Of a DNA stretch of 48,876 nucleotides, positions 5,314-46,861 are shown piece after piece. Location: assembly GCA_030167865.1 (NCBI GenBank), contig JALAGF010000378.1, positions 1 through 48,876 of the forward strand. Direction: 5' to 3'. The stretch's first letter is position 1. The number at the start of each line of letters is the position of its first letter. The notes below the pieces were generated by a model. It had not been told where the DNA came from and made no database searches. It worked only from the letters and a program-made list of their open reading frames with translations. A program made the translations under genes and the position numbers. The stretch comes from Craspedostauros australis. Its lineage: Eukaryota.

Positions 5314-5507
5314 GGTCGATGATGCAGCTGTCGTTGTCCTTGTTCTTGTTCTCGTCGTGTTCCTCGCACTTCGCAGTCTGCTTGCTCATTCGTGGACGGT
5401 GTTGATTCGTCGCTGCGTTGCCAAATCCTCTTTGGTCTCCACAATTTCATTCCGACACACGCTCGTTTTTGCCACCACGACACGATGACAAGACGGACAT
5501 TGTGCCA

Positions 5508-21556: not shown

Positions 21557-23023
21557 ATGAAGAAGCTGCTCGTCGTTTCGAGGTACAACGCCGCATCGTG
21601 GAACATTATCGACAGCGTGGACGGCACGAAGTTGCCGGAAATTAGCTCCGTCGAGACGCGCAATGATGGGTTCGATGACTTCAACCATCCGCGGATCCGC
21701 AGAGCCTGCATCCTGCATCGCCTGGATGAGATGCTGCAATCCAGGGTGTCGTTTCAAGTCCCCTCCGGCGGAGCGGCAGCCGATCTGAGCATGCTGGCGG
21801 ACAACGACGTCTGCGATGCGTCACTGGTGGAGTTCCTGTCGACGGCGTGGGATCGGTGGGATCGGTTGGGGACGGCAGGGCAGGATCCTGCGAGTTCCTT
21901 GCATTGGTTGGAGTCTGAAGAAGAAGACAGCGACAATGGCAGCGATCATGACAACACCAATGACCGCGGTAGCAGCAGCAACGAGAATGATGGGGGCGCA
22001 GCTTCGCAAAGCAAACGCCGGTCCAAGTCCAAGCCGTTGATTCCGGGCAACACGCCATTGCCGCGAGATCCGTTCCAACGACCGTCTCAAGGTGTCATGG
22101 GTCAGATGGGATACTACTGCACGGACACATTCACGCCCGTCTTTCGAGAATTGAAGGAAGAGCTGCTGTGGGATGCGGCGACTATTCAGGCTGCAGTGGA
22201 AGGAGCGATAGCATCAGCATCCAGCGATGCCGGAGACGTCGGAGACGACCCAAATGAGATGTCATCGTTGATGTTTCGTGGAGTGTACGCTCTGTGCACG
22301 CACCCTGGTCATCACGCGGCGTATCAGTCCTTCGGTGGGTACTGCTACGTGAACAACGCTGCATTGGCAGCACGGCTTCTGCAAAAGAAGCTGGCCACAA
22401 ACAACGGCAGCACCGATGGCAGCACCAACAGTGAAGATGAGAAAAAGTGCAGGGTGGCGATCATCGATGTGGACTACCACTGCGGCAATGGTACGGCATC
22501 CATCTTCTACCGCGATGCATCAATCTTGATGGTATCCATTCACTGTCATCCGGATCATGAATACCCATTCCACAGTGGCTTTGCCGATCAAACGGGAGCG
22601 GACGAAGGCGTTGGCGCGACGATGCACATCCCTTTGATGCCGGGCGCTGCGTGGTCCACAACCTACGAGGCGGCGCTACAATTGGCGTTGGACAAGGCGC
22701 TCAATGAGTTCGAAGCGCAGGGTCTGATCTTATCCTTGGGTTTGGACACGTACAATCAGGACCCCTGCAGCACCCGCCGGGCTGGATTTGCGTTGGAAGG
22801 CCGGGATTATCACGAGCTTGGCAAGTGCGTGGCTGTTGCAGTCACCAAAGCAATGCAGGAACGGCAAAGCCGCGGCAGTGAGGATGGTAGTGACAATGAC
22901 AACGACAATCACAACACCAACCAGAGTAGTATTCCCGTCATTTGGACGCAGGAGGGCGGATACTTCATGGAGAAGGTGCCGCAAGCAGTTGGAGATCTCT
23001 TTGATGGATTCTTGTCATGCTGA
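21557..23023 (+). CDS. Zn-dependent HDAC-fold deacetylase, acetylpolyamine amidohydrolase (APAH)-like; intronless
   Basis: GQMGYYCTDTFTP; LCTHPGHHA..FGGYCYVNNAA; AIIDVDYHCGNGT; SIH.HPDHEYPFHSGFADQTG; LSLGLDTYNQDP; QEGGY. The Zn ligands (D, H, D), His dyad and catalytic Tyr are intact. Confidence 0.85.
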   Translation: MKKLLVVSRYNAASWNIIDSVDGTKLPEISSVETRNDGFDDFNHPRIRRACILHRLDEMLQSRVSFQVPSGGAAADLSMLADNDVCDASLVEFLSTAWDRWDRLGTAGQDPASSLHWLESEEEDSDNGSDHDNTNDRGSSSNENDGGAASQSKRRSKSKPLIPGNTPLPRDPFQRPSQGVMGQMGYYCTDTFTPVFRELKEELLWDAATIQAAVEGAIASASSDAGDVGDDPNEMSSLMFRGVYALCTHPGHHAAYQSFGGYCYVNNAALAARLLQKKLATNNGSTDGSTNSEDEKKCRVAIIDVDYHCGNGTASIFYRDASILMVSIHCHPDHEYPFHSGFADQTGADEGVGATMHIPLMPGAAWSTTYEAALQLALDKALNEFEAQGLILSLGLDTYNQDPCSTRRAGFALEGRDYHELGKCVAVAVTKAMQERQSRGSEDGSDNDNDNHNTNQSSIPVIWTQEGGYFMEKVPQAVGDLFDGFLSC

Positions 23024-23408: not shown

Positions 23409-26400
23409 TCATGTCGCTTGCTGCTTCAGGATGTACTCGTTCTCGCAGACCTGGCCGATGTTCGGACGGAACGCTTGATCGTACGTCAAGCACTGGCGGA
23501 TGAAGGCCTTCGCGCCTTCCGAAATACCCGGCTTGTCCGGAAAGTCGACATTCTGGGCGTTGAGCATGGTGTGGTCCGTGAGGAGGGTGTCTTGTGTCTT
23601 GCCTTCGCCAAAGGGTCGTTTGCCAAACATCATTTGGAAGAAGATGACGCCAATCGACCAGACATCCACTTTGTTGCTGATGCGGACGTTGCCGGACGTG
23701 ACGAAGCATTCCGGAGGAAGGTACCAGTACGTCCCAGCACCTTGGCTGGTGAGCTCCATGCTCTCCGCTGGATCCGGCGTGTCAACGATCTTGCTGAGGC
23801 CGAAGTCCGTGATCTTGACGTACCCCGCTTCATCGAACAGGATGTTTCCTGGCTTGAGATCGTAGTGGATAATGCCCTGGCGGCTTCCGTCCGCAGAGCC
23901 TTGGCTGAGGTACTGCATGCCGGCCAGAATCTGCAGCAGGATGGCACGTGCTTCGCGTTCTGGGAGCCGGCGTCGTTCCTTCAGCACGGCGTCCAGGTCC
24001 GTCCCGTTGCAGCATTCCAACACGGTGGCGAATGAGTTGTTATCAATTTCAAACACGTCATACAACGAGACAATTCTGGAATGGCGCACGTTTCGATGGA
24101 TCTCGTACTCTCTCGAGACATGCTTCGTGTAGTTCTCCTTCTTGGAATCCGGCCATCGAGGATCGAGCTGATGGATCTTCACTGCGACTTCGCGCAGTTC
24201 CACAAGATCGTACGCTCTCCAAACCTCGGAGAATCCTCCTTTACCCAACAAGGAATGCAGGATGTAGCGCTCATTCAGCTGTTGATGGTTATCGATGGTT
24301 GTTGTTGGTGACCGTGGTGGTGGAGATGTGTGGATGTGCGAGTGCGTGATGAAAGAGGGGATTCGACGAGGTGAGACCAAGAGACGACAAGACGGAGAAA
24401 GGCAGAGGACACAAACGAGCAAAAACAACAAACACATATTCACGGAGAATTGAACTGACGTGCAAGACCCAATCACGGTAACTTCTTGAGTGGCTGCGTC
24501 ACCACTTACCTTCGGTCTGGAACAGAAACGCGATGAATCCTCGCTCGCGACACGCTTCAATGCACGGTAATGCGCTGCCCGTTCGGCATTCAGATTGTGC
24601 TCAACATCCAGCAGCTGACGCTCCTTGCGTCGCACTGTCTCCAGTTGCATGTGCAACGCCTCCTTGCGTTCCACATTGAGAAGCCGCGATAACGCCCCGT
24701 CTTCTGCGTCCCCTTTCGCAGGCGTCTCGGTGATCATGGTTTCGATGCGCTTGCGCTGCTTGCGCAATTCCTTCTTCTTGTGTTCCAAATCCTTCGTGGC
24801 CTGCCCCTCCTCCCAGCTCTCCACGGCACGCATTCCGGCGCGTGCATAGACGATACGTCCCAACCGCGCCCCATCCGCAGTCAGCTTTTCACGCAGATCC
24901 TTGGCCTGCTGTGCGCTCTTCCAGCGCAAGAGATCTTCAATGACATTGGACGTCTGACCTTCGCGCTGCTTGCTGTTGCGTTCCGTGTCGGCCAGATGCT
25001 GCTTGGCCTTGTTGAGTGCCGATTCGAGGGCGGTGTGCAGGATGGTGCGGTTGTTGGCCAAGGCCTTGAGCTGCTCGTCCTTTTCCTGGAGCTGGAGTTG
25101 CATCTTGTGCATGCGGTCCTTCAGTTCCCGGTTTTCGGCCGCTGCTTTGCTTCTGTCATCTCTGGACGATTGCAACGCCAATGCCGACGACGATGTTGTT
25201 GTTATTGCTGTGCTTGGCATTGATCCTTCCGATGTAGCAGCCAGTGTCGCCGTGGATGAGGATTGTGCGGAGAGGGGTCTGGGACTGATGGCGGCAGATG
25301 ATCTCTTTCTGCTGACACCGTTGCCAGTTGCGGTCGAGAAGAAGTCGGAAATGAACTTGTTGTTGGCTGGAGGCTTCGACTTGCGCGAGTGCGAATGGGA
25401 TCGATCGCGCGAAGTCTCTGAACCAACGGTCGCATTGTCCTGCTGTTGCTGCTGCTGTGGTGGTGGAGTGAATGAAAGCTGCTTGGTCTTGGAGGCGTCA
25501 TCGCTGAATAATCGCACGCGCTTGGCTCGGAAGGAGGTACCGGTGCTCCTTGCTGGGCTGTTCCCAGGGCCGCTGGTCTTATCCGTCAGCGACGTCTGCT
25601 TCTTCTTTGGCGTTGATTTACGTTTCTGCACAACGGGAGGTGCAAGTTGTATTGTTTCGGAGACCATCGTCCATTGTCCATCGTCCAATTCCCATTGTGA
25701 CATCAAGAAGATGGCAGACATTGGCGGTGTTGGCGACGATGACGGTGTTGACGTCGTTGTTGAGCGGGTTGGGGTAAGAGGAATGGAATGTCAGTTGAGT
25801 TGGATGCAAGTTTTGTCGTTGTTTGTGAGAACACGAAGTCGGATTCGCAGAAGCGGAAAAGTCATTTCATTCGTGTCCGACGGAAGCGCAACTTGAAACG
25901 TGCACCCAAATTGGACAAGAAGCGTGCCGTCACAAGCTCGCAGGAATGCTCTCTGCCACATTGAGACAAGGAAGTAGTGTGCACACGCGAGGCAACAAGA
26001 CAACAAGACAACACGAGCAACTCACCGCCGAAGAGGGCGTCGACGACGCGTGACCCAACATCAAGCTGCGGGCCGCTGATGGCTTGACCAGCATGCGTTG
26101 CGGATGGCCTGCCTTTGGATGGTGCGGAGAGACGGTGGCAGGTGGCGATTCTTGCACCGTGCCCAGCCCGCTGCTGCGATGCACATGCGAAGTGAGCAGC
26201 GTGTTATTGGACGCGGTCGATTTGGGTGAACCATCCGAAACGGGAGGCGTGGGCAGCGCGGACAGGCTCTTGTTGTGATCGTGATTGGTCTCGAAGAGCA
26301 CCGACATGGGGAGCTTGGACAGCTGGTCCTGCGGCTGTCCCTGGAAGCCGAACGGGGACGTCGCCGGTGTCGAGGCCATCTTGCGCATGTGCCGTTCGGT

Positions 26401-28211: not shown

Positions 28212-28982
28212 TCATTCCGACAATCTCCGCTGCAACTCCAAAAGTGCGTCAAATTCCTCCTTCGATAATGCATGAACGCTGAGCCTGGAGTTCCGCAGCA
28301 ACGTCATGTTGGCAAGGACTGGATTCGTCTTCGATTCTGCGCGGATCAGTTTCAACGGCACTACGCTCGGGAACACGTCCTCCAGTTCCACCTGCACGGA
28401 AACCCATCGGCATTCATCGCTTGTCGATTTGGGATCGTACTTGCAATGATCGGGATCCAACGCTGTCTCATCGGCGATGGCGCCGCGCGTGATCACAACC
28501 GTCCCGACGATGCCGGGGACCTTGCAGCTCGAATGATAGAAGAAGGCCCTGTCGCCGGCCCGCATGGATTTCAGAATGTTGCGGGCCTGGTAGTTGCGGA
28601 CGCCATCCCATTCCTCTCTCGGATTCTCTTGCGTTTGCAGATCGGCGATGGAGTAGTCATCCGGCTCGCTTTTGAGCAAGAAGAAGTTCGTGGTGGCATC
28701 TGGTTGGGATGTCATCTTGCGTCGTAGCATTCTCATCGTCCTTGTTGTCGACGATGTTGTTGAAGACGACTTCGAGAAGAACAGCGATCCTGTCCCGAGG
28801 CTCTTTGGTGACGGCGCCGTGAAGAAAGTTCTTGCGCAGGTGGCATGTGCGGTTCCAACACGAGAAGCCGATTTCCACATTAGCAGCGCTTCCATCCTGT
28901 GTGGTAGTAGCAGCATCATGAGGGATACCGCTGCTGTGGCTGTTGCTGTTCTTGTTCTTGTTGCTCTAACCTTTCGCATCAT
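28212..28982 (-). CDS. EVE-domain (THYN1-like) protein with N-terminal targeting-like extension, ~256 aa
   Basis: FFLLKSEPDDYSIADL, WDGVRNYQARN, GDRAFFYHSSCKVPGIVG, YDPKS...RWVSVQV, SRLSV. Probable ATG at 28982. Confidence 0.85.
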   Translation of the reverse strand: MMRKVRATRTRTATATAAVSLMMLLLPHRMEALLMWKSASRVGTAHATCARTFFTAPSPKSLGTGSLFFSKSSSTTSSTTRTMRMLRRKMTSQPDATTNFFLLKSEPDDYSIADLQTQENPREEWDGVRNYQARNILKSMRAGDRAFFYHSSCKVPGIVGTVVITRGAIADETALDPDHCKYDPKSTSDECRWVSVQVELEDVFPSVVPLKLIRAESKTNPVLANMTLLRNSRLSVHALSKEEFDALLELQRRLSE

Positions 28983-29728
28983 GGGCGCATCTTCATCAAT
29001 CGTGATGCATTGCCGTAACTGAGATGGCAGCACGAATGATGTCCAACAGATGATGTGTGGGTGGGTGCAGCTCTTGGCGAAGATACGCGTACGAGTACGA
29101 CCGATGATCTGTGTCGATCGTGCTCGTGCACACGTCAAGGATGACTGATTGCAACGAGAAGCCTCTCTGGAGTCAAGGGAGATCTTCGCCAGACGTCCCC
29201 ATGCTAGCACAATGAAGATAGAAGCAGAATAGTCAAGCCATAGCACTGCGATGCGTCTACTTGAAAAGCAATTCAGAAGCGCCATCCACACCATGAGCAA
29301 AGACTGAACAGAACAAGAGAATAAGAGCTTTATCGTAACCATCAATGAAGAGGACTGCAATGAAAGATCTACCGCGGTGACGTGTTCGAGTACTCTATTG
29401 ACATCTCTGTCCATGCGTCTATCAGCGCTCAATGAATAACTACGCTCCCGTATGCCTGCTCTAGAACGATCGCATCAGGAACACGCACATGTGCCACTTG
29501 ATCCGACGTTGGATTGGACAGGACGGTGTTGCTGTCGTCTGCCTTTCTTCATGATATGGAGAGGGATTCCATTGTTTGTCGTCAGATTGTTCGAGAAGCG
29601 CAGTGCGCTACGGCGACGTGGGGAGCGGCAATCAAGCTCCAACGCATCACCACATAGTATTTCACTCCACTCTGACCAATCGGCCGCCCTTTCCAGGTCT
29701 TCCCACATCGTCTCAAAACTCGCACACT

Positions 29729-30715: not shown

Positions 30716-31383
30716 GCTGCTTTGTTTCCTGGTTGCTTGACGAGCCTGTGCTTTAGAGATATCTAATCTATGTGTGTGGAGGATGTAAAATAAAATGGAT
30801 TAGAGCAGAGTAGGATGGGGTGGGAAAGAGCACCGTGGAGCAGCTTGATTGAAGGGACAGACGCGTCGGAAAGTGTGGCTGTGGAAGATCAGACGAGTTG
30901 GTGCCTGTTCGTTTGTGTTGTGTTGTTGTGTTTCAATAGTGGGTGATTTTCCTGTTTGTGTGTTCGCGCAGCTTCGTCTCATTTTTTGCGTTGTGGTGGC
31001 TATAGCTCCTCATGTAAATTGAGGAAATGAATTTACGGTACTTTTTCACCATACCAGCAGCATAAAATTGACCAGTACCGTTTCCATCCAGTCAATTCCA
31101 TATTTTACCGAGATGTAGATTCCAAGAATGACTCAAACGACTGAATTACGACCAACCGAAAGAACCGCAACACGATGCTCACAACAACCACTCTTTCGAG
31201 TTGTCCCGCGTTGATTTCGTTACTCACCCGCTTCTTCTTGTCGCATCTCCACTTTCGGTACCCCAACACAACATCATCATCACAAGAGATCATCACATCA
31301 TCATCGTAACTCGTCCGATCCCATCACCCCATTCCGACCGAACATCCAGAGATCGATCAACGCCATCCGACTGAATCGCCAAC

Positions 31384-32733
31384 ATGCCGAAAGCCGAAAA
31401 GGGAACACCGAAGGACATTGCCAAGCGCATGAAGTCCAAGGGACTGCAGAAGCTGAAGTTCTACTGCCAGATGTGCGAAAAGCAATGCCGCGATGCCAAC
31501 GGTTTCAAATGTCATCTCACCTCGGAGGCCCATCTGCGACAAATGAAGATCTTCAGCGACAACGCGAGCGGCATCCTGGACAGCTTCTCCAAGGAATTCG
31601 AATCGGCGTACATGAGCACGCTGCGGATGCGCCATGGCACGAAACGCGTCAACGCCAACAACGTCTACCAGGAGATGATCGCTGACAAGGGGCACATTCA
31701 CATGAATGCCACGAAGTGGGTGACGCTGTCCGAGTTCGTGCAGTACCTGGGAAAGATGGGAAAATGCGTCGTGGAGGAGACGGAGCGCGGTTGGTACGTG
31801 TCGTACATCGAACGTGATGTGAACATCATCGCGCGTAAGGAAGCGTTGGAACGTCGGCAGCAGGCGGAAAAGGAGGCGGAGGCAGCCGAGGCACAGCGAA
31901 TGAAGATCCAGCGAGTCGAAGCGGCCAAGGCATTCGATAGAGCAGGTGGCAATGTGGATGCTGTCGTGACCAAAATGCAACGCAAGGACGGCGAGCAGGT
32001 GAAGTTAGCACTGGGGAAGCAGCCATCTGCGGTGTCGTCATCGTCGAAATCCAAGTCGAAGGGCAAGAACAAGAAGAAGGGATCCGTCTTTGGAGATGAT
32101 GACAGTGATGACAGTGATGGCGACGAAGTGGGAAACGGCAGCGGTGGCGATGAAAACATCAACAAGAGCATGGATCCGCCAACTTCTGCCTCCAACGAAA
32201 TGCCATCATTCAGAAATCCGAAGCGGGATGACGCAGCCGATGTGTCACGGCGCGAATCCAAAAAGAACAAACGAAAGAACAAGGACATATCCGAATCCAA
32301 AAGTGAAAAGGATAAGAGCAAGAAAAGCAGCGGCAAACGATCCAAGACGAGCAATTCCGATTGGAAGGACTACTGGTTGAAGCAAGGCATCCTCGTCCGC
32401 ATCGTGTCAAAGAAGCTGGCGGACGGACAGTACTTCAAACGCAAGGCCATCGTGGAAAAGGTGATCGACAAGTACATGGCGGAGGTGGAGGTTCTGGACT
32501 CTGGCCCACGCGCCGACGACGGCGGCGATGTGCTGAGGCTGGATCAGGCAGATTTGGAGACGGTGATCCCGAGCGTCGGCAAGCGCGTGCGCATTTTGAA
32601 TGGACCGCACCGTGGGGAGAAGGCAGTTGTGAAGGACCTCAACAAGGACAAAGCCGTGGCGTCGTTGGAATTGGAACGGGATGGGACGAGCGCCAAGAAG
32701 GTGGCGTACGAAGATTTCTCGAAGATGTCGTGA
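31384..32733 (+). CDS. KIN17: DNA/RNA-binding protein KIN17 (zinc finger, winged helix, C-terminal KOW/SH3-like domains); intronless
   Basis: MPKAEKGTPKDIAKRMKSKGLQKLKFYCQMCEKQCRDANGFKCHLTSEAHLRQM; HIHMNATKW; LDQADLETVIP; YEDFSK. Confidence 0.95.
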   Translation: MPKAEKGTPKDIAKRMKSKGLQKLKFYCQMCEKQCRDANGFKCHLTSEAHLRQMKIFSDNASGILDSFSKEFESAYMSTLRMRHGTKRVNANNVYQEMIADKGHIHMNATKWVTLSEFVQYLGKMGKCVVEETERGWYVSYIERDVNIIARKEALERRQQAEKEAEAAEAQRMKIQRVEAAKAFDRAGGNVDAVVTKMQRKDGEQVKLALGKQPSAVSSSSKSKSKGKNKKKGSVFGDDDSDDSDGDEVGNGSGGDENINKSMDPPTSASNEMPSFRNPKRDDAADVSRRESKKNKRKNKDISESKSEKDKSKKSSGKRSKTSNSDWKDYWLKQGILVRIVSKKLADGQYFKRKAIVEKVIDKYMAEVEVLDSGPRADDGGDVLRLDQADLETVIPSVGKRVRILNGPHRGEKAVVKDLNKDKAVASLELERDGTSAKKVAYEDFSKMS

Positions 32734-33492
32734 TGCTTGCACGTGACTGTTCTATAGAGCAGAACATTCTAGTACACCCTACTTACGAGTATGACTCACA
32801 AGGCAGTCTGACCATTTGGTTTCATCCGTCTCGGTCTGCACTTGATCAACCTCTTGGTGTCGCATTGCATTGCATCGCACGGGAGTGGAGTAATACACAC
32901 ATAGAGGAGTAGGCGAGGATCAGAGAAGTAGAGTCACCCAAGGGTATGTGTACTTGCACATGTGATGAGATAGCCAAAACCTCCTTCTCCACGTTCACAA
33001 GGACCACCATCGTTGGGCTTCTCATTGAAAGCCCTTGCTCTTGAGCAGTTCCAGAGTGCGGGTGTACGATTCTCTGCTCTGCACCTCTGCCTTGAGTTCC
33101 CACGAGTATCCTCCCTCTCTCTGTCTCTCTGTGTGTCTGCCTCTAGATTTATACCATAGCATGTTGGACGAATAGTCGAAGAAGCGGCGAACGGAATCAG
33201 GAATTCATCTGTCTCGCATCAAGAAAATGACCTTTGAGAAGCCGAAACGAGTGATTCTGCCCAAACCCAAGAATGTCCCAAACACCAACACCTCCAACAC
33301 CAACAACAAGGCCAACATGACATCTCTCCCTGCGTCCAAAGGCCGTCGTGAATCTGTTACTTGGTGCCGCCAAAGAGCCTTCAGCCTTGCCTGTTGCAGA
33401 CATCCACATCAGCCATCATCACGACAACAGCCTGCGCCAGAGCGATCACAAGATCGGATCCCTTCACAACCCCCACAGACTATACCATAGGA

Positions 33493-33549
33493 GACATCAC
33501 AAGACACCACAAGACATCACAAGACATCACATCACAAGAAAGGACATCA
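33493..33549 (+). repeat. Degenerate GACATCACAA tandem repeats in the ThrRS 5' leader
   Basis: gacatcacaa gacaccacaa gacatcacaa gacatcacat cacaa...gacatca. Confidence 0.6.
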
Positions 33550-33576
33550 TTTGACAGCACTCCAACAGACACCAAG

Positions 33577-36500
33577 ATGGGCAAGAAGAATCAGAAGGGC
33601 GGAGCCGCCGCCATCATGCTCAACAAGACGGGCAAATTCATGGTGCTGGATGCGCCAGGAGTCAAGCAGCCCGAAGCAGCCGCACCGGCTGCGGCACCGG
33701 CCGCCGCATCCAAGCAGCAGAAGGAAGGCGCGCAGGGACGCCGTGCCAATGCCTCCGCAGGACCGCGCATGGACAACTCCGGGAAGAAGCTGATCGGAGG
33801 AGACTCCTTCGTGCAGCGCACCATGGACCCAGAATTCCTCAAGCAACGAGAGGAGGTCTACGCCAAGATCAAGGCCCGACGCGAGGCAGAGTTTGCCACC
33901 AAGATCCCCGTCGCCATCACGGTCACCCTGCCCGACGGCAAGGTCCTCGACAAGACCAAGCAGGGCGAGGACTACATGACCTGGAAGACCACTCCCTACC
34001 TCGTCGCGCAGACCATCAGCCAAGGTCTGGCCGACAACTCCATCGTTGCGCGCGTCACCTACGAGAAGTTCGCCGACGACTACGATGCCGCCGAGGACGG
34101 CATGGAGGGAGAGGACACGCTCATGGACGCCATGGACGACGGTGGCGTCGAGAACGATGACGCCGCCAAGAACACCCTGCTCTGGGACATGACGAGACCG
34201 CTCGTTGGCCCTGTCAGCAAAATAGAGTTCCTCAAATTCGCCGACGACAAGGATGCCAAGACCACCTTCTGGCATTCTTCCGCTCACATGATGGGAGAGG
34301 CCATGGAGAACCTCTTCGGTTGCAAGCTCACCATCGGACCACCACTTGCGGGAGGTTTCTACTACGATTCCTACATGGGAGCGGATGCATTCCGTGAGGA
34401 TGATTGTGAGTACCGACGTCAGCTGCGTATGATTGATTGGGCATGGTTAAGGATGTGCACATGGATCTGCATATCCCGATCGTGCATTCAAGAAGTGGGT
34501 TGGCCTTCAAATGGCCATTTCCGCTTGTGGTGATCACATGCTGCTGCTGCTGCTGTTCTTGTTTTCGTTGTGACAGGCTTCGTGTATTCACAACGCACAC
34601 ACTAGCGCATCGCAGCAGTATCCTCGTCCGTCCATTCCATCATGTCCTTCTCACAACAACAACTGCAATCACTGCACAATGACAACCATGTTACATTCAT
34701 TCTGGACTCACAACAACAACAACAACAACAACAGACAAGCCAATCGAGGCGAAGGTTTCCAAAATCACCAAGCAGAAGCAAAAGTTTGAACGCATGGTCG
34801 TCACAAAAGAAGAAGCCTTGGAACTGTTTGCTGACAATCCATTCAAGCAGGAGATTTTGACCACCAAGGTCGCTGATGGAACCCGCACCACAGTCTACAA
34901 ATGCGGCAATTTGATCGACTTGTGTCGCGGACCGCACGTGGCGCACACGGGAAAGATCAAGGCGTTTGCCACCACCAAGCACTCTGCCACCAACTGGCTC
35001 GGTGACACCGACAACGATTCGCTGCAGCGCATATACGGTATCAGTTTCCCAGACAAGAAGATGCTCAAGGCATGGAAGGAGAACCAGGAGAAGGTAAGAT
35101 CACAACTCAACAGAGCACGCCGCAACACACACAACAAAGCACACCTTGTGACACCATGGCACTACACCATTGCATGCACACGTAGCAGAAGCAGCAATGG
35201 TGGCAGCGGTTACAATACAACCGCACGACGATGCAATGACGATATCCGATACGAATCTCATTCTCAGATCCAAAATACACATGATCGAAACATCTATCCA
35301 ACTCGCTGATTATTCTGAGCATCAACACCAAGTCCGCGCAACCTTTTCTTGCATTCAGGCACAGGCAACCAACACGATCAGCACCAACTTCTGACTAACA
35401 CATCTCTTCCTCCCCCCTTGTTGCTTTGCACACTCATGTTCTGATCCGATCCCATGCAAACCAAACCGATAACAACAACACGAATGATGCAAACGATGCA
35501 AACACTCGGCTGCGGACGAATAACAACACAAAACACCAACGCAACAAACAAACAAACAAACAAACAAACAACACGCACAGGCCAAGGAGAGAGATCACAG
35601 ACGAATTGCTGCCAAGCAAGAGCTCATCATGTTCCATGATCTGTCGGCTGGAAGTGCGTTCTGGTTGCCACACGGTGCCAGAATCTACAACAAGCTCATC
35701 GAATTCATCAAGAAGCAGTACTGGGTGCGCGGCTACGACGAGGTCATCACACCAAATGTTTACAACCTCGATCTGTGGCACAAGTCCGGCCACGCCATGC
35801 ACTACAAGGATGCCATGTTCTGCTTCGATGTGGAAGGGCAGGAATGGGCCATGAAGCCAATGAACTGCCCAGGTCACTGTCTCATGTTCGGCAACTCCCT
35901 CCGTTCATACCGTGACCTTCCAATCCGATTCGCAGACTTCGGTGTGCTGCACCGCAACGAGCTTTCTGGTGCCCTCAGCGGTTTGACCCGTGTCCGCCGC
36001 TTTCAGCAGGACGACGCCCATATCTACTGCCGCGAGGACCAGATCGCCGATGAAGTTCTTGGTGCTCTGGAATTCATGAAGTATGTGTACGACATCTTCG
36101 GCATGACTTACAAGCTTGAGCTCTCCACAAGACCAGCGAAGGCCCTTGGTGAAATGGAGCTGTGGGACCGCGCCGAGAGCGCCCTTGCCGAAGCCATGAA
36201 CAGATTCATCGGGGAAGGCAACTGGAGAGAAAACCCAGGCGACGGTGCCTTCTATGGACCAAAAATTGACATCAAGGTCATGGACGCCATGGAGAGAGTG
36301 CACCAGTGCGCAACCATCCAGCTCGACTTCCAGCTCCCACGCAGATTCGGACTCACGTACAACACCGGAAAGAAAGAGGGAGATGGCGAGCAGTTCGGAA
36401 TCCCGGTGATGGTCCACAGAGCCATGCTTGGAAGTGTGGAACGCATGTTCGCTGTCTTGTGCGAACACTACGGTGGAAAGTGGCCGTTCTGGCTCAGCCC

Positions 36501-36795
36501 GCGTCAAGCGATGATCATCCCCATCCACGCCGACTGGAACGAGTACTGCCAGGGCATCCGCGACAAGCTGCACGCCGAAGGCTTCTACGTCGACGTCGAT
36601 CTGTCCAAGAACACATTCCAGAAGAAGGTTCGCACAGCTCAGGTCTCGCAGTACAACTACCAGCTGGTCGTCGGTGCTAAGGAGAAGGAGAATGGCTCCG
36701 TTAACATCCGCACAAGAGAGAACAAGGTCGACGGCGAGATGAAGGTGGAAGATATGATCACCATGTTCAAGAAGTACCGCGACGAGTACAAGTAA
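33577..36795 (+). CDS. TARS: Threonyl-tRNA synthetase, cytosolic eukaryotic type; exons 33577-34405, 34735-35093, 35581-36795; 800 aa
   Basis: TGS domain ITVTLPDGK; editing domain FWHSSAHM and [66 protein letters not shown]; anticodon domain. Both introns restore the frame. Confidence 0.96.
34711..34731 (+). repeat. (CAA)7 microsatellite immediately before the 3' splice site of ThrRS intron 1
   Basis: Direct inspection. Confidence 0.8.
35545..35570 (+). repeat. (AAAC)n microsatellite just before the 3' splice site of ThrRS intron 2
   Basis: About six tetramer copies. Confidence 0.8.
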
Positions 36796-37278: not shown

Positions 37279-37893
37279 CTATGACTCTTCCTCGACTGCT
37301 GCTTCTGGTGTGGCCTCCTCGTCGGCCTTCGCCAATTCGGGGTCGTAGACGGCCTTGAATTGCGCGGTGAAGGCGATGTCGTCACCCATCTTGTATCCCT
37401 TGGCGATCTCTGGGATGTCCTCGAGCACCTCGGCTTCGCCGTCGCTGCCTGGAAGGTACTTGAGTCCGTAGGCCTCAACGGTGGACTGGATGGTGCGGAT
37501 AACGCTCTCCTGGACAGCAAATCCGCGGATCTGCGGCAGGGCGTACGGTGGCACCTGCCCCTTGCGGAATCCAGGGAAGTTGGCCTTCTTGGAGGCATCC
37601 TTGAGCACCGTGGTGTGCAGTTCCTTGATCAGGGCGCCCTTGGACTCGGTCTTCAACCAGAAGCTGTAGACGGCGCCCATGTCGCTCTGGACATCTGGCT
37701 CCTCATTCATTTGCTTCATGATGGTGTTCTCGATGGTGTTGACGGCTTCCAGAACCTCGCCGCCCTCCGGCTCTGGCTTGAGCTCGTAGGCCTGCAGTCG
37801 CATCAGCGACGATGGGGCCGACGACTTGGTGACGACGAAGGCGGAGCATCGTGCCGCAACGAGCAATAACAGAAGAGCGCGGATGGATTGCAT
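37279..37893 (-). CDS. Plastid-targeted stand-alone trigger factor ribosome-binding (N-terminal) domain protein
   Basis: Signal peptide MQSIRALLLLLVAARCSA-FVV (ASAFAP-type) plus transit peptide; trigger-factor signature FPGFRKGQVP. No PPIase or C-terminal domain. Confidence 0.85.
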   Translation of the reverse strand: MQSIRALLLLLVAARCSAFVVTKSSAPSSLMRLQAYELKPEPEGGEVLEAVNTIENTIMKQMNEEPDVQSDMGAVYSFWLKTESKGALIKELHTTVLKDASKKANFPGFRKGQVPPYALPQIRGFAVQESVIRTIQSTVEAYGLKYLPGSDGEAEVLEDIPEIAKGYKMGDDIAFTAQFKAVYDPELAKADEEATPEAAVEEES

Positions 37894-38503
37894 TGTAAAG
37901 TAGAGTGCTTAAGTATAATAGGAGGCACCGTGGTTCGAAATGGAAAGTATGGATTGGGCGAATGGAATTGCTGTGTTCTGATCAGTCTCGATCGGCACAC
38001 TTTTTCGCCGTGGCGTCAAACATCGTGATCCATGGTGTCTGAACGGTCGGGGCAAGCGGTCTGGACCAGCAACCGGATCCTCGCCCTCGCAAACAGCGTC
38101 ATCGTGGTCTGTATTGGCAGCACATGGCGAGGGTTGCCGACTGACGCACACGAAAAGTTTGCTTGAGCACCCATCACACATCAAACGCAAATCGCGGTCG
38201 ATTCGTGACACCTTACTCGTGATTAATCAATGAGTCAAAGGAATCGTTTGGAGACCTCACACCAACCAAAAAAGTGAGGCCACGCTTCGCGGTTCACGCT
38301 TCGCGAGACAAAACACGATCAAACAGCTTCGTTCCTCTTGTGCAATGAATCCAGCGACACCTCCCACCAATCTGGTGAGATTCAGCCAGTCATCGGTTCG
38401 ATAGTTGGAGTGTTGCAGATAGCACAACAATGTACGACAACACCACACTCTCCTCTGCTTACCGACCGTCCGACTACACTTCAAATTGAACACCACCGTA
38501 AAG

Positions 38504-40420
38504 ATGCCAAAGCACGAACGAGAAGAACGAGCCTCTCACAAGAATCCTCGACCGTACGATCAGCGCGGGCGCGGTGGCAATGGCAATGATAATCGCAACC
38601 GCAGGGGCGGTCGGGATGGCAACAGCCACGACAGGAACCAACGTCGCAAATGGAATCCCAACGATGACATGGCGCCCTGCGCCACATTCGATGAAATGAA
38701 TCTGAAGAAGGATCTGATCAAGGGGATTTACGCTTACGGCTTCGAGAAACCGTCAGCGATCCAGCAGAGGGCCATCCGTCCCATCATCCGAGGACGGGAC
38801 GTCATTGCACAATCGCAAGCAGGAACGGTGCGTTGCGTTGCGTCGGGCCAAGTCATGCTATGATGATGCACTGCATTCGGCCATGTTTTGCTCTTCTTTG
38901 GATGGATTGCGTTGCATTGCATTGCTTCCACATGCAGCCTCATTTGTGCTTCGAGTACTCCATCCTCATCTTCAATCCCCGTGTTCGTTCTGATGCCCAT
39001 GTTTTTCACCGCCTTACGTCGTTGCAACGTTCACATTCATTCGGTCGTCTTCACACAATTGAATATACTATGATGCTTCATGCAATGTTTCATTCACTCT
39101 GTCAATCCATTGCCATAATGTTCAGGGTAAAACGGCAGTCTTCACGATCTCCGGCTTGCAATTGCTGGACGAAGCATCGCGTGACTGCCAGGTGCTCATT
39201 CTGAGTCCAACCAGAGAACTTGCCGAGCAAACGCAGAAGGTCATGCAGTCCCTTGGAGATTACATGAACGTGAGTGCGCCACTGCTTGAACGATACGATT
39301 GTTGCGATGCCGCAACATGCACCATGACTTGTAACCAGATGCTGATGAGGCTGGTCATGAAAGCTGCATTCGTTCTTTCTTGGGAGAGAACACAAAGTGC
39401 TCGTACCCTACTCCTCCGGTCATCTCTGCACCCGCGGTCGGAGTACTTACGAGCGCTCTGCAGACACTTCAACAACATCAGATCCTTTCTCACATTTCGC
39501 TGAATTCTTCGATGCGCACTGACTCCACACTTTGCGCGCAACTCCAACGTACTGATGGGCTCCATAAACAAACATGCGCACAGGTCAATTGCCATGCCTG
39601 TGTAGGAGGTAAATCGTTGGGACTCGATCTCAAGGAACTAGAAGGAGGCGGCGTCCAAGCAGTGTCGGGAACGCCCGGTCGTGTCTACGATCTGATCCGT
39701 CGCAACGCCCTGAACATGAAGAACCTCAAGGCTCTCATCTTGGACGAAGCAGACGAGATACTCAGCAGGGGGTTCAAGGATCAGATTTACGACATCTACC
39801 GCTACATCCCACCGGCCTGCCAGGTCGTCCTGATGAGCGCTACTTTGCCACCGACCATCTTGGACATGACGAGGAAATTCATGAACGATCCCATCCGAAT
39901 TCTCATCAAGCGCGACGAACTCACGCTGGAGGGCATCCAACAGTTTTACATTGACGTCGAGAAGGAAGAATGGAAGTTCGATACCCTCTGCGATCTTTAC
40001 GACACCCTCACCATCACGCAGGCCGTCATCTTTTGCAACACCCGCACCAAGGTGGATTGGTTGGCGGACAAGCTGCGAGAGAAGAAGTTCACCGTCAGTG
40101 CGATGCACGGAGACATGGATCAGGAGGGACGTGACAAGGTGATGAGCGAGTTCCGTGGTGGAACTTCCCGCGTCCTCGTGACGACGGATCTTTGGGGACG
40201 CGGTATCGATGTGCAGCAGGTCAGCTTGGTCATTTGCTACGATATCTCGGCGGACAAGGAGCTCTACATCCACCGCATCGGACGATCCGGTCGATTTGGG
40301 CGCAAGGGTGTGTCGATCAACTTGGTCAAGGACGAGGAAAAGCCCACCCTCAGGAGCATCGAACAATTCTATCGCACGAAAATTCGGCCGATGCCAGCCA
40401 ACGTTGGAGACTTTCTGTAG
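38504..40420 (+). CDS. EIF4A3: DEAD-box helicase, eIF4A-III/FAL1-like; exons 38504-38827, 39126-39269, 39584-40420; 434 aa
   Basis: Q motif [40 protein letters not shown]; the eIF4A-III-typical [25 protein letters not shown] and [18 protein letters not shown]. Two phase-0 introns. Confidence 0.9.
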
Positions 40421-40732
40421 GGCTTGAACGTGGAAATATAAGGTGTAATACGCTTGACGTGTATGTATTACGCAATGATAACATGTGCTAATACCAGTAT
40501 GGCCAATCGATTCCAGTAGCAAGAACATTAGCCTGATAGAGGCACACACTGGTACGTATGGTTTACGAGTACTGTTATTCATCCAGAGGGTGACAGCGTT
40601 CACGGCACGTTCCTTTTGCGCTCCCGTCACTTCACGATTCCTTTTCCGTTTGGCTGTGTGCACGTGCAAAGACTTGGATGCCTCTCATTGAAGGCGGCAT
40701 GTTTCTCTTCGTTGTCGTTTGCATCTCCTGCA

Positions 40733-43700
40733 TTACTTGCTGAGCAGCGGTCGGACGGCGTCCCAATCAAGCGGCGCCTTAAAGTTGCGCCTCTCGATGT
40801 AAGACATGAGCACTCGGCAGGCACCGTCGCCAAACTCATTGCGCAAGCGGATGATTTCTTCGTCTGTTGTGCTGAAATCCAGGACATCGTCGCCCATCTC
40901 CTCCAGATCATGATCCATGTACCCTTCGCTGACCACCGTCTCGACCATGATGTTGTTGGCGGATCGCAGGTATTCGTATGCCGACGTCCATTTGCCGGAG
41001 AGGTAGTGCCTGATACCAAGAGCGAAGGTCTCGGCAAATTGGTCCGTGACATGCTGTCTCATGGCGCGCAGGTCGGGGTCATCCTCCCAAATCGTGGGGC
41101 TGTACGCTTCGGCATCCTCCTCTGCCTGTTCAGGCCTTCGTTCGATGAGGAAGAAGTCGACCCCGCGATGTCGTGCGTCGTACGTGAAGATATCCTGCTT
41201 GACCTTGCTGCCTTTCACGTAGACGGTGTCAAGATGACGTAGCTTCTTGCGGCACTGTCGTGAAAGAATCTCCTCGACGGCCTTGCTGAGCAGAATCGTG
41301 ACGCCGTACTGCTTCGTTGCGCTCATCATTCTCGATGCCATGTTGACATGGGGTGACAGGTACGTGGCATCGATCTTGTACTCGCTCCCAACCGCGCCCT
41401 CAACCGCCCAACCAGCATCCATTCCGTAGATGACTTCGACGCTGTACGTATTCACACCAGCACTCAGTCGGAAGTCCGTCTTCCATTTCTTGAGCTTGTG
41501 ATCGCGGTGAAGGCCGGCGAATGATTTTAGCATTCCAAGCAACGCACGGTCCGAGAATGATTGGATTCCTGGAAGCGACGCCAGTTGCAGGGTATCGCCA
41601 TCGCCATGGCCTTTGCGTTTCTTCCTACCTCCTCTCATGTTGCGCAAGGTCGGCACCTTGCGGGCGGTGCTTTTTCCGTTCCCGTCGAACACCACAGCTG
41701 TTGCCAGTCTCTGCTTCTCATGGACTTCCGAAAAGTCGCCGATACGGAACACCATCAGGAAGGCCGAACCAAGATTCTTGTTGCACTGGCCACTATCTCC
41801 CAACGCCCATCGATACACCTCGTCGTGAACAACCTTCGCAACGTCATTGATGAGTACCATGACGAGCCCATCCAGGGCGCGGAGCTGATGACTGAAGCCG
41901 TTGATGGCAACGAATCCAAACAGAGCGTAAACCCGCTTGCCTGGAACGGTCGGGTTGAACACCACAGTTTCACCATCCTTTGTCCTGGCAAGGTTGGAGG
42001 AGATGATGCCTGCTCCAGCAACACCCCAGCACTTTCGGAGCAAGTCCGCGATTTTGGCAATCGCGTTGATGAGCTGTTTCGTTTCGTAGTTTCCAATTTC
42101 TTCGAGAGCATCGTTGTCCGATGCCGACGATCTGTCATCTCCGTCCTTCCCGTCATCCTTCGTTTGTTCTGCCAATGGGTTCTCGGCATCTGTTGAACAC
42201 AAACATAAAAATGAATAACCAGATGGAAAATCAAATGAATGGGTGAGTAAGTTGGGGAGTGGGTTTGGGTGAGTGGAGTTGGATCGCATTGCAGGCTTGG
42301 CACCAAACATCCGCTTCATGAACGTTGATGCAAAAATGTTATGCAACGCAGCAGCATCAACAGCAATGGCCATGTCATGGCATGCCGCACGGCCCTCTAC
42401 CTCATCTACTGTATGAGTGCTGTGGGACTTACATCGAAGGATGATTTTCAACATTTTTTGCAGCGGATCCAAAACCAGTCGAATTGCGTCACTGCGGAGG
42501 GCCTGCAATCCAAACAATCCAAGGAAGAGGATTCCAAACAGCAGGAAGAGAAGCCCCATGTTTCTGTAAATCCAGATTCAGACCCAACCACGTTCCGCAT
42601 TCCATCCAAAAACAATGGCGCCGTGTATGATGGGAATGGCGTCGTAGCACGCAATTGTGTGTGTGTGGGTGCACGCATGGATGTACGTTTGGGTGAGTGA
42701 GTGAGCATTCATATATATATTTGACACTATTGCGCGCGCAGAATCTCCGCTTTGTAGGGAGCTTCCAATGTCATGCAATGAGGCTCCGACACCCGAAGTA
42801 TCACGGCAAGCAACTCAGATGATGCACAACAAGGCCAACAGCTCCCGCTTGAGCAGTTGACAGCAATCAATGCAGCAAAGTGACTTACGAAAGAGCGATG
42901 CTTGGATTTTCATTGTAAAATGCAGTCACAGTGTACTCAGCATCGATTGGACTGCCGAATTCTTCCCGAATACCACCAGGTCGAACTCCGATCGCATTGG
43001 CAAAATACCGCGCGGACGTGTCCGTGGCTGAGGCAGTATAATCCCACACCTCACAGACTGCCGGAGCTTCTGATTTCATGTCATCGCTGCAAACCGTGAT
43101 GACGCCATCAGAGCGCTGGAAGTCACAACGCACGGGCATGAGTTGAGCCCAGAGCACGTAGGTGCTCTCGACATCACCCTGAAAGAATTCCGGTTGCGGA
43201 ATGGACGCCATGTTCAGCCACGAATTCACTGCTGTTTCCAAGAAGGCGCAGTCAGTGTCGGTGGAAGTCTTGGCAGCAATGTTGTTGGCCTGCAATAGAT
43301 TCATGTATTCTGTTGCAACCACATTGTTTTGCTTCAACGAATCGATGATCGGGAGCACGATGACAATTACCACTCTGAATCGTCATGAGACATTCATGGC
43401 CAATCGATATTGGTTTGTTGTTGCGAGAATTGCAGAACAGAATCGTGTGTTATCTCGTCGCAGACGAGGGAGAGCACGGAGCGAGAGAGCAAAAGCGTGA
43501 ATGTGTGAGAACGTGATGCGAACAATTCAAATGGCACACCATCGATTGAATTAGACTGGACTGGACTGCATTTACTCAAACGCAATTCGCGGCACCAATG
43601 CGTGTGCAATTCGCAACACCCTTTCATGATGCCTTCAACCTCCAAATGATCTCGAAGTTGAGGAAACACTTACAGAAGTATCAGTGCGCGATGGGAGTTG

Positions 43701-46700
43701 ACAACCATCAGCGCCGTTCCAATGGTTGCAGCATTCTTCAGCCGTTCATCCTCTTCTGATGTACCCTTGCTATCTCGCGGACTTCTCTCGCTCTTCTCCA
43801 AAGCATTAGCGTTGTCCCTCTCATCCTGCAAGATTGCCATAGAGTGGTTTGAAATGCGCACATGGTAGAATGCCAGCATTCAGCAGAAAGGGACCATTGG
43901 CAGTGCAACGTTTGGTGAGATGGAGTGGGAATCGTCGAAAACATGCTCGGTTGCAACACCAGGTCTCGATCACAACCGATTTTTACAACGGGCGATAATG
44001 GGGGACTGGTGCACAGCTGTGGTAGCAATTCCAGTGATATCAGCAATTGCATCAGCAGCAGCGATGTCGTCAGCACACAGCACTCAGCAACACTTCGCAA
44101 CGCATCACAACTCACATCTGTCTTCTTGTATCGCGTGTTGGTGCGCTGTTTTTCCAAACCCAGAACTTGACTTTGACTGAACAGCCAGTTGTCCAGTCCT
44201 TCGCGTTTCGCGGGGCTAAAAGACGTGTTGATCCACATTTGCTTCCAGTGCCGCACCAACCCAAACAACCGCAAGGTCGTGATGCCCAGGATGAAACGCC
44301 CTCTCATCGCAGTCGCGTAGTCGTCGGAAAGAACGGAATCCAACGATGCCTGGAGGCGGGAGAATTCCCCGCGTCGCGTGCACATGTCTACATCCGAGAG
44401 GCAGCTGAACTCTGGAATGAATGTGAGCAACGCCAAACCCTCGAAAAAGAGATGGAAGGTGTTCACATGTCGCGCGGTGGACGGTGCAAACGCCTTGTCC
44501 GTCGTAATGAGGTCGTAGTAACCGGCCGGGCGAATGATTGCTTCAAAGAGGAGCTCCAACGCAAGAATGCTCCAAATCACGCTGTTGTTAGAGGACACGA
44601 TGTAGATGATGGGAAATGCGAAAGAAAAGTTGTAATTTCACCAAGGCAAGGCACAAATGTGTGAGAATACGCCTGCGATGCAAAGTTGCTTTGGTCTGTG
44701 CATCAGCCAATGCGCAAGCATGTCCCTTTCATATGCTTGTTGAGCTGATGCCACACAAACGACACAATGCATGGCAATCGCATCGCAACGCATCTTCGCA
44801 CAACCATCTCGTTGACGGCTGTTCGCGTTCGCGCTTGCATCTGCACTTACACACCGGCGACTGCAACTCCGTAATCGAATTCCGCGGGAATGAAGGCCAG
44901 GTTGGCCAGTTCCAGGAACAGGAAGGAGAAGCTGCAGCAGACGAGAAGATTGATCACAGTGATCCGGAGCCTGCAGGCGAAGGGCGCGTCACCGAACAGA
45001 AGCTTGGTGACGATCATTTTGAGGTTCATCCTTTGCTTCCTGTAGTACGGAACCATGCGATCCTCGAAGAACTGAATCGGCCACATGATGGCAATCCAAA
45101 AGCAATCTGCGAAGTGCTGCGCGGCGCCGACTTCTTCTGGCTTGTCTTGCATGGATCGCACCGTCCTGCCCGCGGCGCGGTATGCCGATTGAATTGCAAC
45201 CGGATCTCGAAGGGGTTCCATCCAATCTGTGAACGGGACAGAGGCGGAGCAGAACAATATCCGTAGTTCAGCAATGTTGATCATGGAGAAATTACGACAA
45301 TGCAGAAGTTATGAAATCGTTAGCTTGGCACTGCATGACCATGCATGGTCGAAAACCAAACCAAATCAAACCAAACCAAGCCGATGAAAGGAAACAATGT
45401 TGCTGATGCAAGCACCAACATGCAATGAAATGCGATGCAACGCCATCTCCATTCACATGCATTTTGGCGAATCTGCACCGAATTTTGCGATTGCACTTGT
45501 GTATACTTACTGGAATCCGCCCGCTGTTCCATCCCCGTGTCGGCACGGGTGACGGTGTAGTATCTGGCATCCTCATCGAAGTGAGCATGCTTGACCGTCG
45601 ACAGAACATACGCGTACGGGCCGCTCCTCTCCGCTTCGGATTGACCCTCGCCTTGCGGAAATCCAACGGCATTGACGGGCGCGATCGTGCAAAGATCCTT
45701 CGGATAGTCCTTCTCGGCAGTTACATTGAGCAACGTGAGGTTGACCAGGACTGTCTCGTTGATGGCGAATTGCTGATTGCGCTTGTTGGCCGCCTCTCCG
45801 GAGACGCTCGCGCTGACAACCGCGGCTGCCGCAGCCACATTCTCCCATTCGTTGTTCGCATCTTGATTCTTGAAAACCTCGATCGCCGCCTCCAGCTCGT
45901 TCCTTCCTGTGCCCGTCGATCCGGACCCATTGCGTGAACTGATGGCCAACGATAGGTTTTGCCGTCGTGTTGACCGTCGCTTGCGTGATCGCACGCTGCC
46001 CAACAGACCGTGTCCCGAACCGGAGGATTGGGAATGCGTTGTCTCGTCGCTTTGGGATGCCAGCGAGCCAGACAAGGGAGCGTGGATTTTGACCGATGGG
46101 CGGCGCAGCGTGGCGGAGTGTCGCCTCGATGTTTCGACGCCCTGCGCATTTGGAACAGAGATGGAGAGCGGTCTCCGGCGCTCCACACGATGGTGTTCGT
46201 GCGGAAGCCCGGGCGACAACGAGTCCAATCCCGCTCTGGCTGGTGCGGAATTGAAGGATCCCTCCGACTCAGCGTGAGACGTGCGCCGCGAGGCCGGGCG
46301 GTACGATGAGCGGCGCTGCCGACCGGGGTCAATGAGGTCGTTGATGCTCATGGGTTCGTAGCCGTACTTTTCAAGATCTTCACCGTTGCCATCCTCGGCC
46401 TCGGTTCCCATGGAGTCGTCCCGGACTGGACCGAGAGTCGGATTCCACTGGTAGTCCATGCTCATGGGCTTGTATCCCAGGTTCTCGAATTCATCCGCCT
46501 CCTCTGACTCGTCAGTAGTGAGGATCATGCCCCCCGGCGATTGTCGTGCTTCGGAACCAGCGGTGAAAGGCCTGTCCCCAAGCCCGCCACGGAGGCCGCC
46601 GACGGCACCGTCGCTCATGCCAGCGCGGCCTCCGCTGAAGTGCATGGCGCTGTTGATGAGTCCTTGATCGTCATCGTCGTCAACGTCGTCAACGTCGTCA

Positions 46701-46861
46701 TCACCACCGTTCGATCCACTCCCAACACCGATTCCCATACCCGCGCCATTGAGATCGGCGTCGGTATCGTCATCGTCGCTGTCCAGATCCCCGGCATCAA
46801 GCACAGCAGCGGCCAGGGCCATCTGATCCAGCAAGCTCCCCCTCCTATTGCGGTCGGACAT
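40733..46861 (-). CDS. Multi-TM, ion-channel-like class III nucleotide cyclase (Paramecium/Plasmodium AC-alpha architecture) with degenerate metal site; exons 46861-45511, 45226-44851, 44581-44116, 43825-43674, 43374-42889, 42563-42433, 42189-40733; ~1472 aa
   Basis: Six GT-AG introns that all preserve the frame; about 6 TM segments; ETKQLINAIAKIADLL..WGVAGAGII; GWAVEGAVGSEYKIDATYLSPHVNMASRM; C-terminal TPR-like YLSGKWTSA...APLDWDAVRPLLSK. Confidence 0.88.

Follow-up and report, generated by a model that had tools for sequence, protein, structure and literature searches.

Complementary half-sites are textbook knowledge for animal adenylyl and guanylyl cyclases. In mammalian C1/C2 and in soluble guanylyl cyclase (sGC) alpha/beta, one complete site is built from complementary halves, and the other site of the heterodimer is degenerate. 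The half-site logic of the transmembrane adenylyl cyclases (tmAC) is described in the available text of PMC8815786 and PMC2576301. Ion-channel/adenylyl-cyclase fusions are known from Paramecium, Tetrahymena, Plasmodium (AC-alpha) and Toxoplasma (Weber 2004 and Schultz 1992, as cited in the accessible part of PMC3283738), and the accessible part of PMC12223298 describes Phytophthora PPTG_13136/13761 as the same kind of fusion. Here we analyzed a gene in 48,876 nucleotides of DNA from Craspedostauros australis (contig JALAGF010000378.1 of GCA_030167865.1, positions 1 to 48,876), hereafter the window. The whole gene lies on the minus strand at 40733..46861, has 7 exons and encodes a channel/voltage-sensor-type class III cyclase of about 1,495 amino acids (aa), belonging to what we call the A-type clade. 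Its cyclase domain has lost both metal-binding Asp and kept the residues that serve the opposite half. Our favoured reading, to which we give a probability of roughly 0.45, is that the protein is a C2-like half that pairs with an Asp-bearing subunit.

The cyclase domain lies in the minus-strand open reading frame (ORF) 40733-42577. As modelled, it spans 310 aa at 41156..42085 (minus strand), with evidence from AlphaFold2, Foldseek, a profile compared with the PDB and a hidden Markov model (HMM) of the family. The AlphaFold2 model (predicted local distance difference test, pLDDT, 78.8; predicted template modelling score, pTM, 0.74) has the class III fold. The best Foldseek match was 4yus (E 4.6e-11), and 157 matches had E<=0.001, with PAC, CyaC and sGC chains at the top. 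The family HMM matched the window ORF at E 1.4e-165, and an exhaustive phmmer search gave 549 proteins at E<=1e-30 and 3,350 matches at E<=0.001. A family-specific insertion of ~65 aa separates alpha2 from alpha3, and the N-terminal helix typical of the family is present as well. No second cyclase was found in the window with the family HMM and the domain scan.

Residue numbers below are those of protein P0001 (window:40733-42190:-), which carries the motifs FVAINGF, CNKNLGSAF, YKID and VNMASR. The first metal-Asp position is Ala (A95, aa 1105 of the whole protein), encoded by GCC at 41906..41908 on the minus strand. The second is Ser (S142, aa 1152), encoded by TCG at 41765..41767 on the same strand. 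The purine-specifying Lys K138 (AAG, 41777..41779, minus strand) and Asp D274 (GAT, 41369..41371, minus strand) are kept. Also kept are the ribose-orienting Asn283 (41344-41342) and the transition-state Arg287 (aa 1297, 41332-41330), both in VNMASR at 41330..41344 on the minus strand. The original prediction, made from the letters of the window, had named Ala GCC (41908-41906) and Ser TCG (41767-41765) as the replaced metal ligands, and had called the K/D and N/R pairs intact. Codons and alignment columns agree with the first claim, and K138, D274, N283 and R287 are all present. To these we add the beta7-beta8 phosphate-binding Lys K326 (aa 1336; AAA, 41213..41215, minus strand) in the motif VKGS, which is likewise kept. 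The tmAC phosphate-Arg position is Trp throughout the channel/cyclase family.

The Pfam profile PF00211 matched the domain with 25.7 bits against a gathering cut-off of 21.9, over profile positions 98-178 of 183, the C-terminal half only. Because Pfam covers only this half, the assignment of the metal columns leans on relatives. We aligned 250 family proteins with hmmalign and wrote six positions (95, 138, 142, 274, 283 and 287) as a pattern, which in the window protein is A-K-S-D-N-R. The 37 D-K-D-D-N-R and 54 D-K-N-D-N-R proteins had their Asp in the same columns as the window Ala and Ser. A profile of 34 family members, compared with the PDB, placed "FgFcDIreF" on bPAC "FFSDILAF" and "NKNlGdaF" on "TKFIGDCVM"; its N-terminal stretch is weak alone (15.4 bits, i-Evalue 0.06). 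We take those bPAC Asp to be the metal ligands. At the level of aligned sequence, it is thus confirmed that Ala and Ser occupy both metal-Asp columns of a class III cyclase domain. Judged by these residues, the domain has neither of the two metal Asp by which a self-sufficient (homodimeric) class III cyclase is recognized.

That the gene is decaying or already a pseudogene, or that faulty alignment has put the Asp columns in the wrong place, is barely credible. The half-length Pfam match and the weak N-terminal comparison with the PDB would allow an artefact. Against it, the 7-exon frame is open, orthologues are 66-71% identical over 485 aa, the fold is confirmed and the 37 canonical relatives have Asp in exactly these columns. 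One public sequencing run (share 0.17) and no RNA run was listed for the window; its contigs cover 40700-41571 and 41804-42088 with zero differences, contain no joints and are uninformative on expression or splicing. Decay or artefact is contradicted by the conservation data. The claim that the 7-exon ORF is undamaged stands, with tblastn blocks for each exon and an open coding sequence (CDS) of 4,485 nt.

To place the window protein, we used a search for longer proteins, with 120 homologues listed, and 150 phmmer representatives. P0002-P0100, which are 45-71% identical to the window protein, lack Asp in both columns; P0101-P0121, at 35-40% identity, have FGFCDI and LGNAF there. Rows gapped at any of the six positions or with <70% coverage were dropped before tree building, and 213 of the 250 remained. 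Group A, the A-type, has 103 members including the window protein, from diatoms and Triparma. It is monophyletic (Shimodaira-Hasegawa-like support 1.0; ultrafast bootstrap, UFBoot, 99 in a 60-tip subsample, with 24/24 sampled tips). Group B, the B-type (n=56), has the pattern D-K-N-D-N-R. Group C (n=53, UFBoot 100 in the 60-tip subsample) is mostly D-K-D-D-N-R and includes Paramecium sonneborni P0360. Because its clade includes Triparma, the A-type state is old.

Asp was found at either metal column in 0/103 A-type proteins, so the loss of both Asp is shared by orthologues in other diatoms, a point that the original prediction had proposed to check. The first metal column of group A holds A62, G23, T8, V3, S2, E1 and four others, and the second holds A34, S26, G19, P13, N8, Q2 and E1. 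These columns have entropies of 1.79 and 2.32 bits, whereas the mean over the domain is 1.24. The corresponding columns are D52/E3/M1 and N in 54/56 in group B, and D in 45/53 and D in 45/53 in group C. The trans residues of group A are nearly invariant: K138 is kept in 92%, D274, N283 and R287 each in 99%, and K326 in 102/102. The single outlier in group A, P0097, is read as a truncated ORF call. By tblastn, orthologue identity is 68-71% in the cyclase exon versus 38-52% in the other large exons. The view that the change is not decay is upheld, since the state is fixed in a monophyletic clade and no other large part of the protein is conserved as well as the cyclase exon.

Taxon names are given as printed in the sources; where they were cut off we expanded them, taking for example "Minuto" to be Minutocellus and "Leptoc" to be Leptocylindrus. 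Named A-type sources are Nitzschia (two species), Cylindrotheca, Mayamaea, Pseudo-nitzschia, Epithemia, Fistulifera, Seminavis, Striatella and Amphiprora, together with Aulacoseira, Chaetoceros, Thalassiosira, Detonula, Cyclotella, Rhizosolenia and Triparma laevis. In the tree the window protein groups with Nitzschia, Cylindrotheca and Pseudo-nitzschia sequences, which points to a raphid pennate source. The A-type contains two old paralogue subclades; a member of both occurs in Nitzschia sp. Nitz4, N. inconspicua, Mayamaea and Epithemia. B-type proteins are named from Thalassiosira, Cyclotella, Cyclostephanos, Minutocellus, Proboscia, Leptocylindrus and Aulacoseira, and from Triparma, Ochromonadaceae, Chlorochromonas, Pinguiococcus and Ectocarpus. 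In the three protein searches, the named B-type sources were all centric diatoms or flagellate ochrophytes. A further large B-type clade comes from metagenomes, and cluster look-ups gave no taxon names for it.

A class with the reciprocal pattern, D-K-D-D-N-F, was found among the weaker matches, and cluster look-up identified its members as diatom proteins. We call it the D-type. The P0356 cluster contains Leptocylindrus danicus records, and the P0357 cluster contains Chaetoceros tenuissimus GFH57281.1 (P0416, 949 aa). D-type proteins keep FCD[VI]RNFTD, with the first Asp and the canonical FT P-loop, and NKNIGDAF, with the Lys and the second Asp; GCGLHFGW and KIDAS are further motifs. What they have lost lies on the other side. 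They read PHVNWSEFLES, where the Asn is kept and Arg287 has become Phe, and KKSETD replaces VKGS so that Lys326 is gone. The D-type is only 35% identical to the window's domain. In the trees it lies in group C as sister to P0349 (D-K-D-D-K-R, Lys lost); Cantina P0229 (D-K-D-D-N-A, Lys lost) joins it in one tree and not in the other. D-type proteins combine Ion_trans with a cyclase domain, and P0416 has in addition a C-terminal Roadblock/LC7 domain (residues 839-930, E 7e-7), which may point to a connection with dynein or flagella.

We scanned JGI metagenome contigs for the motif HVNWSEFLE and obtained 10 loci. The same residues are kept and lost in 8/8 loci with a readable domain; these eight are 65-95% identical to each other and represent roughly five lineages. 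Arg-to-Phe is present in them by construction because the motif was the search key, which does not apply to the kept Asp pair and the lost Lys. As 8/8 are alike at 65-95% identity, the reciprocal state itself is conserved. The reciprocal pattern that the original prediction had proposed to look for is thus present in the D-type of Leptocylindrus, Chaetoceros and 8 metagenome loci, but it was seen in no named pennate.

These data suggest how the protein would work under the favoured reading. The gene product would be an A-type subunit of a stramenopile/alveolate family, with a voltage-sensor/ion-transport-like membrane domain and one class III cyclase domain. Its cyclase domain is predicted to be incapable of binding both catalytic metals. 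It keeps all cross-interface residues, namely the purine Lys/Asp, the ribose Asn, the transition-state Arg and the gamma-phosphate Lys. The A-type domain would pair head-to-tail with its counterpart in another subunit, one that carries the Asp pair. Such a pair would contain one complete site, made of the partner's Asp pair and P-loop and the A-type K/D/N/R/K; its other site would be dead and might have a regulatory role. The leading candidate for the partner is the diatom D-type, with its Asp pair and FT P-loop kept, Arg changed to Phe and Lys lost. From their residues, neither A-type nor D-type is expected to be active as a homodimer, and the two together would form exactly one full site. 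We infer that the two may bind each other, that the pair may be active and that Craspedostauros australis may possess such a partner. Half-losses of both kinds recur in the family and therefore fit a family of mixing subunits, for which trans-complementation is the best single explanation.

Several points weigh against this reading. Every named pennate match in the three protein searches is A-type, and 0 pennates had a B-type protein in these searches and one look-up. No D-type was seen in named pennates, for which no systematic D-type search was made, and the class is named from two centric genera only. The two A-type paralogues of each named pennate cannot complement each other, because both lack the Asp pair. 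Raphid pennate diatoms have no flagella. The Asp-bearing classes may be tied to flagella, in which case pennates would have lost them and kept K/D/N/R for another reason; the accessible part of PMC12223298 reports the channel/cyclase family from flagellated or ciliated organisms. In tmAC structures, the contacts to phosphate at the "top" of the cyclase site are, with the two Asp set aside, mostly made by backbone atoms. The same asymmetric conservation would therefore be expected of an ATP pocket that works as a homodimer without metal, and does not by itself prove a different partner. As for the "C2-half" heterodimer put forward in the original prediction, the asymmetric conservation and the reciprocal diatom class speak for it, but an Asp-bearing partner class is unseen in named pennates.

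The same observations favour a different role, in which the domain is a non-catalytic pseudo-cyclase. A homodimer or a pair of A-type paralogues would bind ATP, or some other adenine nucleotide, with neither metal nor turnover and act as a sensor or dimerisation module that controls the voltage-sensor/channel-like membrane domain. A precedent within this fold is offered by degenerate GGDEF domains that sense GTP. Both metal ligands are lost and the two columns drift freely, and side-chain drift at a "top" with mostly backbone contacts, as in tmAC structures, is compatible with nucleotide binding. In the parent D-K-N-D-N-R class the second Asp had become Asn in 54/56, so catalysis may already have been weak by the time the first Asp disappeared. 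Named pennates have only the A-type, with two paralogues each and K/D/N/R/K invariant. However, the transition-state Arg and the ribose Asn are not obviously needed for binding, and yet both are 99% conserved. The conserved reciprocal class of diatoms would have to be a coincidence, and in established degenerate halves such as tmAC C1, unused residues decay. We consider a pseudo-cyclase less likely than the heterodimer, but a serious alternative to it. A more specific version is that raphid pennates lost the Asp-bearing channel-cyclases, and that the lone A-type is an adenine-nucleotide sensor that tunes the voltage-sensor/channel module and has been conserved for >100 million years. Its pocket would be K/D/N/R/K, with Asp258 locking the site. 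We think this version unlikely.

Asp258 (GAT, 41417..41419, minus strand) stands in place of the GLHxGW His on beta4 and is A-type-specific. The position is Asp in 95/103 A-type proteins, and His in 56/56 of the B-type and 50/53 of group C. It lies three residues before the beta4a triphosphate-Arg position. This switch bears on the possibility that the A-type is a self-sufficient enzyme, either with a metal site rebuilt from Asp258, the invariant Glu264 and, in many members, Asp/Glu at 98/100, or with a need for fewer ligands. His258 to Asp is the sharpest clade-specific switch in the family. According to the available text of PMC2576301, beta4 begins, at the active site, next to where beta1 ends, and a triphosphate-positioning Arg is on beta4a. 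In the B-type, the change of the second Asp to Asn (54/56) coincides with P-loop Thr100 to Asp/Glu (54/56), and group C has Thr in 36/53. This correlated switch might relocate a carboxylate and so offer a possible precedent. The window protein itself has Gly98 and Ser100, however, and so no P-loop carboxylate. In early-branching A-type proteins, position 258 is not Asp (it is His in P0060, Cys in P0100 and Ser in P0133) and the first metal Asp is already gone, so the switch came after the loss of the first Asp. If beta4 is a regular strand, position 258, three residues ahead of the phosphate position, would face the opposite side, and other independent first-Asp losses in the family keep His258. 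A rebuilt or reduced metal site is very unlikely on this evidence.

Other members of the family have lost residues in other combinations. Inside group B, an M-K-G-D-N-R clade (P0179, P0336, P0337, P0342, P0344, P0346, P0434 and P0436) has lost both metal positions, to Met and Gly, and has kept K/D/N/R/K and His258; the loss is apparently independent. Further half-losses are the I-K-x-D-N-R proteins, which include Lagenidium I-K-A-D-N-R, and Cantina D-K-D-D-N-A. The heterotrophic stramenopile Platysulcus tardus has two partly reciprocal paralogues, P0232 (N-K-D-D-N-R) and P0237 (D-K-D-D-G-T), which are 54% identical in the domain. The proteins P0295-P0341 (~535-566 aa, D-K-N, with a membrane domain and half a cyclase) were considered as natural C1-like halves and rejected. 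All of them end after "VDLRRIPG" with unrelated tails, and by this feature they look like metagenome ORF calls cut at a conserved intron. One subclade of P0295-P0341 has His for the first Asp (FGFSHI).

In the literature searched, we found no account of complementary half-sites in stramenopile/alveolate ion-channel/cyclase fusions and no paper on diatom channel-cyclases without the Asp pair; PF26726 gave no literature match. If A-type and D-type pair, the C1/C2 design would have arisen independently in diatoms, from two separate voltage-sensor proteins. Signals from two membrane sensors would then converge on one cAMP-forming site, and expression of a single gene could not report activity. If pennates have no partner, the A-type would be a strongly conserved pseudo-cyclase whose ligand pocket can be tested. 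In both cases, the annotation "adenylate cyclase family protein" would overstate the capability of one subunit in the A-type clade.

With three full-length homologues (P0002, P0003 and P0010), tblastn gave 7 collinear blocks in the window. Joined at GT/AG junctions, they form an open CDS of 4,485 nt from ATG at 46861 to TAA at 40735-40733. The first in-frame ATG was taken as the putative start codon. The junctions were picked by similarity, and the boundaries of intron 3 are uncertain. All exons are on the minus strand. Exon 1 (45511..46861) encodes the long N-terminal region, in which a Pfam scan of window:45512-46546:- recognised no domain. Exon 2 (44851..45226) encodes the first hydrophobic segments, with transmembrane-like stretches at aa 539-557 and 570-588. 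Exon 3 (43977..44581; 3' end uncertain, alternatives 44079 and 44007) contains an S4-like Arg/Lys-rich helix at 44298-44233. Exon 4 (43674..43755; 5' end uncertain, alternatives 43773 and 43752) is short. Exon 5 (42889..43374) encodes part of the membrane domain, and exon 6 (42433..42563) the last hydrophobic segment, transmembrane-like at aa 971-989. Exon 7 (40736..42189) encodes the linker helix, the cyclase homology domain and a C-terminal helical (TPR-like) tail.

Exon 5 matches an HMM built from the membrane domains of the D-K-N-D-N-R relatives. This B-type HMM gave E 1.7e-4 by hmmsearch on window exon 5 (ORF 43382-42888), and E of about 1e-20 to 1e-24 on full-length A-type members. P0101, a B-type member of the HMM, matches PF00520 at 1e-6. 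By this profile comparison, the membrane domain of the window protein is homologous to that of its B-type relatives. Pfam Ion_trans was undetected in the Pfam scan of the window exons and of the A-type homologues. The joined protein has 5-6 hydrophobic segments and the S4-like helix, and no GxG between its hydrophobic segments. According to the accessible part of PMC3283738, the proposed pore motif of the channel/cyclase family is GXG after TMD6. The sole GxG past the last hydrophobic segment of the window protein is an invariant G-x-A-G-A in the pre-cyclase helix (window 42085-42000, minus strand, aa 1066-1074). It may be the same element as that pore motif. Among precomputed annotations, PF26726 (Helical_RasGEFs, Pfam 38.1) is listed for all 120 homologues, and the local Pfam copy returned it for no protein; PF00211 and PF00520 are listed for part of them. 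For the tail, TPR_2 matched weakly and only in homologue P0010 (E 0.046).

On both strands of the window, from 1474 to 40420, the neighbours are ordinary nuclear genes. They encode an AAA+/TIG protein (1474-5385, minus strand), a PhyH dioxygenase (11290-12753, plus), a histone deacetylase (21473-23023, plus), a protein kinase (23409-25790, minus) and an EVE-domain protein (28212-29474, minus). These are followed by KIN17 (31375-32733, plus), a class II tRNA synthetase (33352-36795, plus), a trigger-factor-like protein (37279-37908, minus) and a DEAD-box helicase (about 38700-40420, plus).

Compared with the known systems, the window protein is, by homology of its cyclase domain, a member of the channel/cyclase fusion family. 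As in the channel/adenylyl-cyclase fusions, a membrane domain, here with an S4-like helix, is followed by a single class III cyclase domain and then by a helical tail, and Paramecium sonneborni P0360 falls in the same family HMM and tree. It differs from P0360, which has the full D-K-D-D-N-R, in its A-K-S-D-N-R, and proteins of its kind have a long extra N-terminus, with ~1,400-1,500 aa versus ~900-1,000. The D-type (P0416 and Leptocylindrus danicus P0415) has the same family membership and membrane plus cyclase architecture, also in diatoms, whereas its defects are the mirror image of those in the window protein and the 65-aa insertion is absent. The chytrid RGC1/2 with NeoR, as described in the available text of PMC8815786, are sensor-cyclase fusions encoded by separate genes that work only as heterodimers. 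They are a precedent for obligate heterodimeric sensor-cyclases on separate polypeptides. Complementary loss does not explain heterodimerisation in chytrids, because in that account RGC1 and RGC2 both retain every known catalytic residue in their cyclase domains (PMC8815786). Like tmAC C2 and sGC beta, the window protein has lost the metal Asp pair and has kept the base-specifying and transition-state residues, which it would supply to a partner. Unlike tmAC, where the halves are in one chain, and sGC, where the subunits are soluble, the putative halves here would be separate membrane proteins. Among the known systems, the window protein would be most like a C2 or sGC-beta half.

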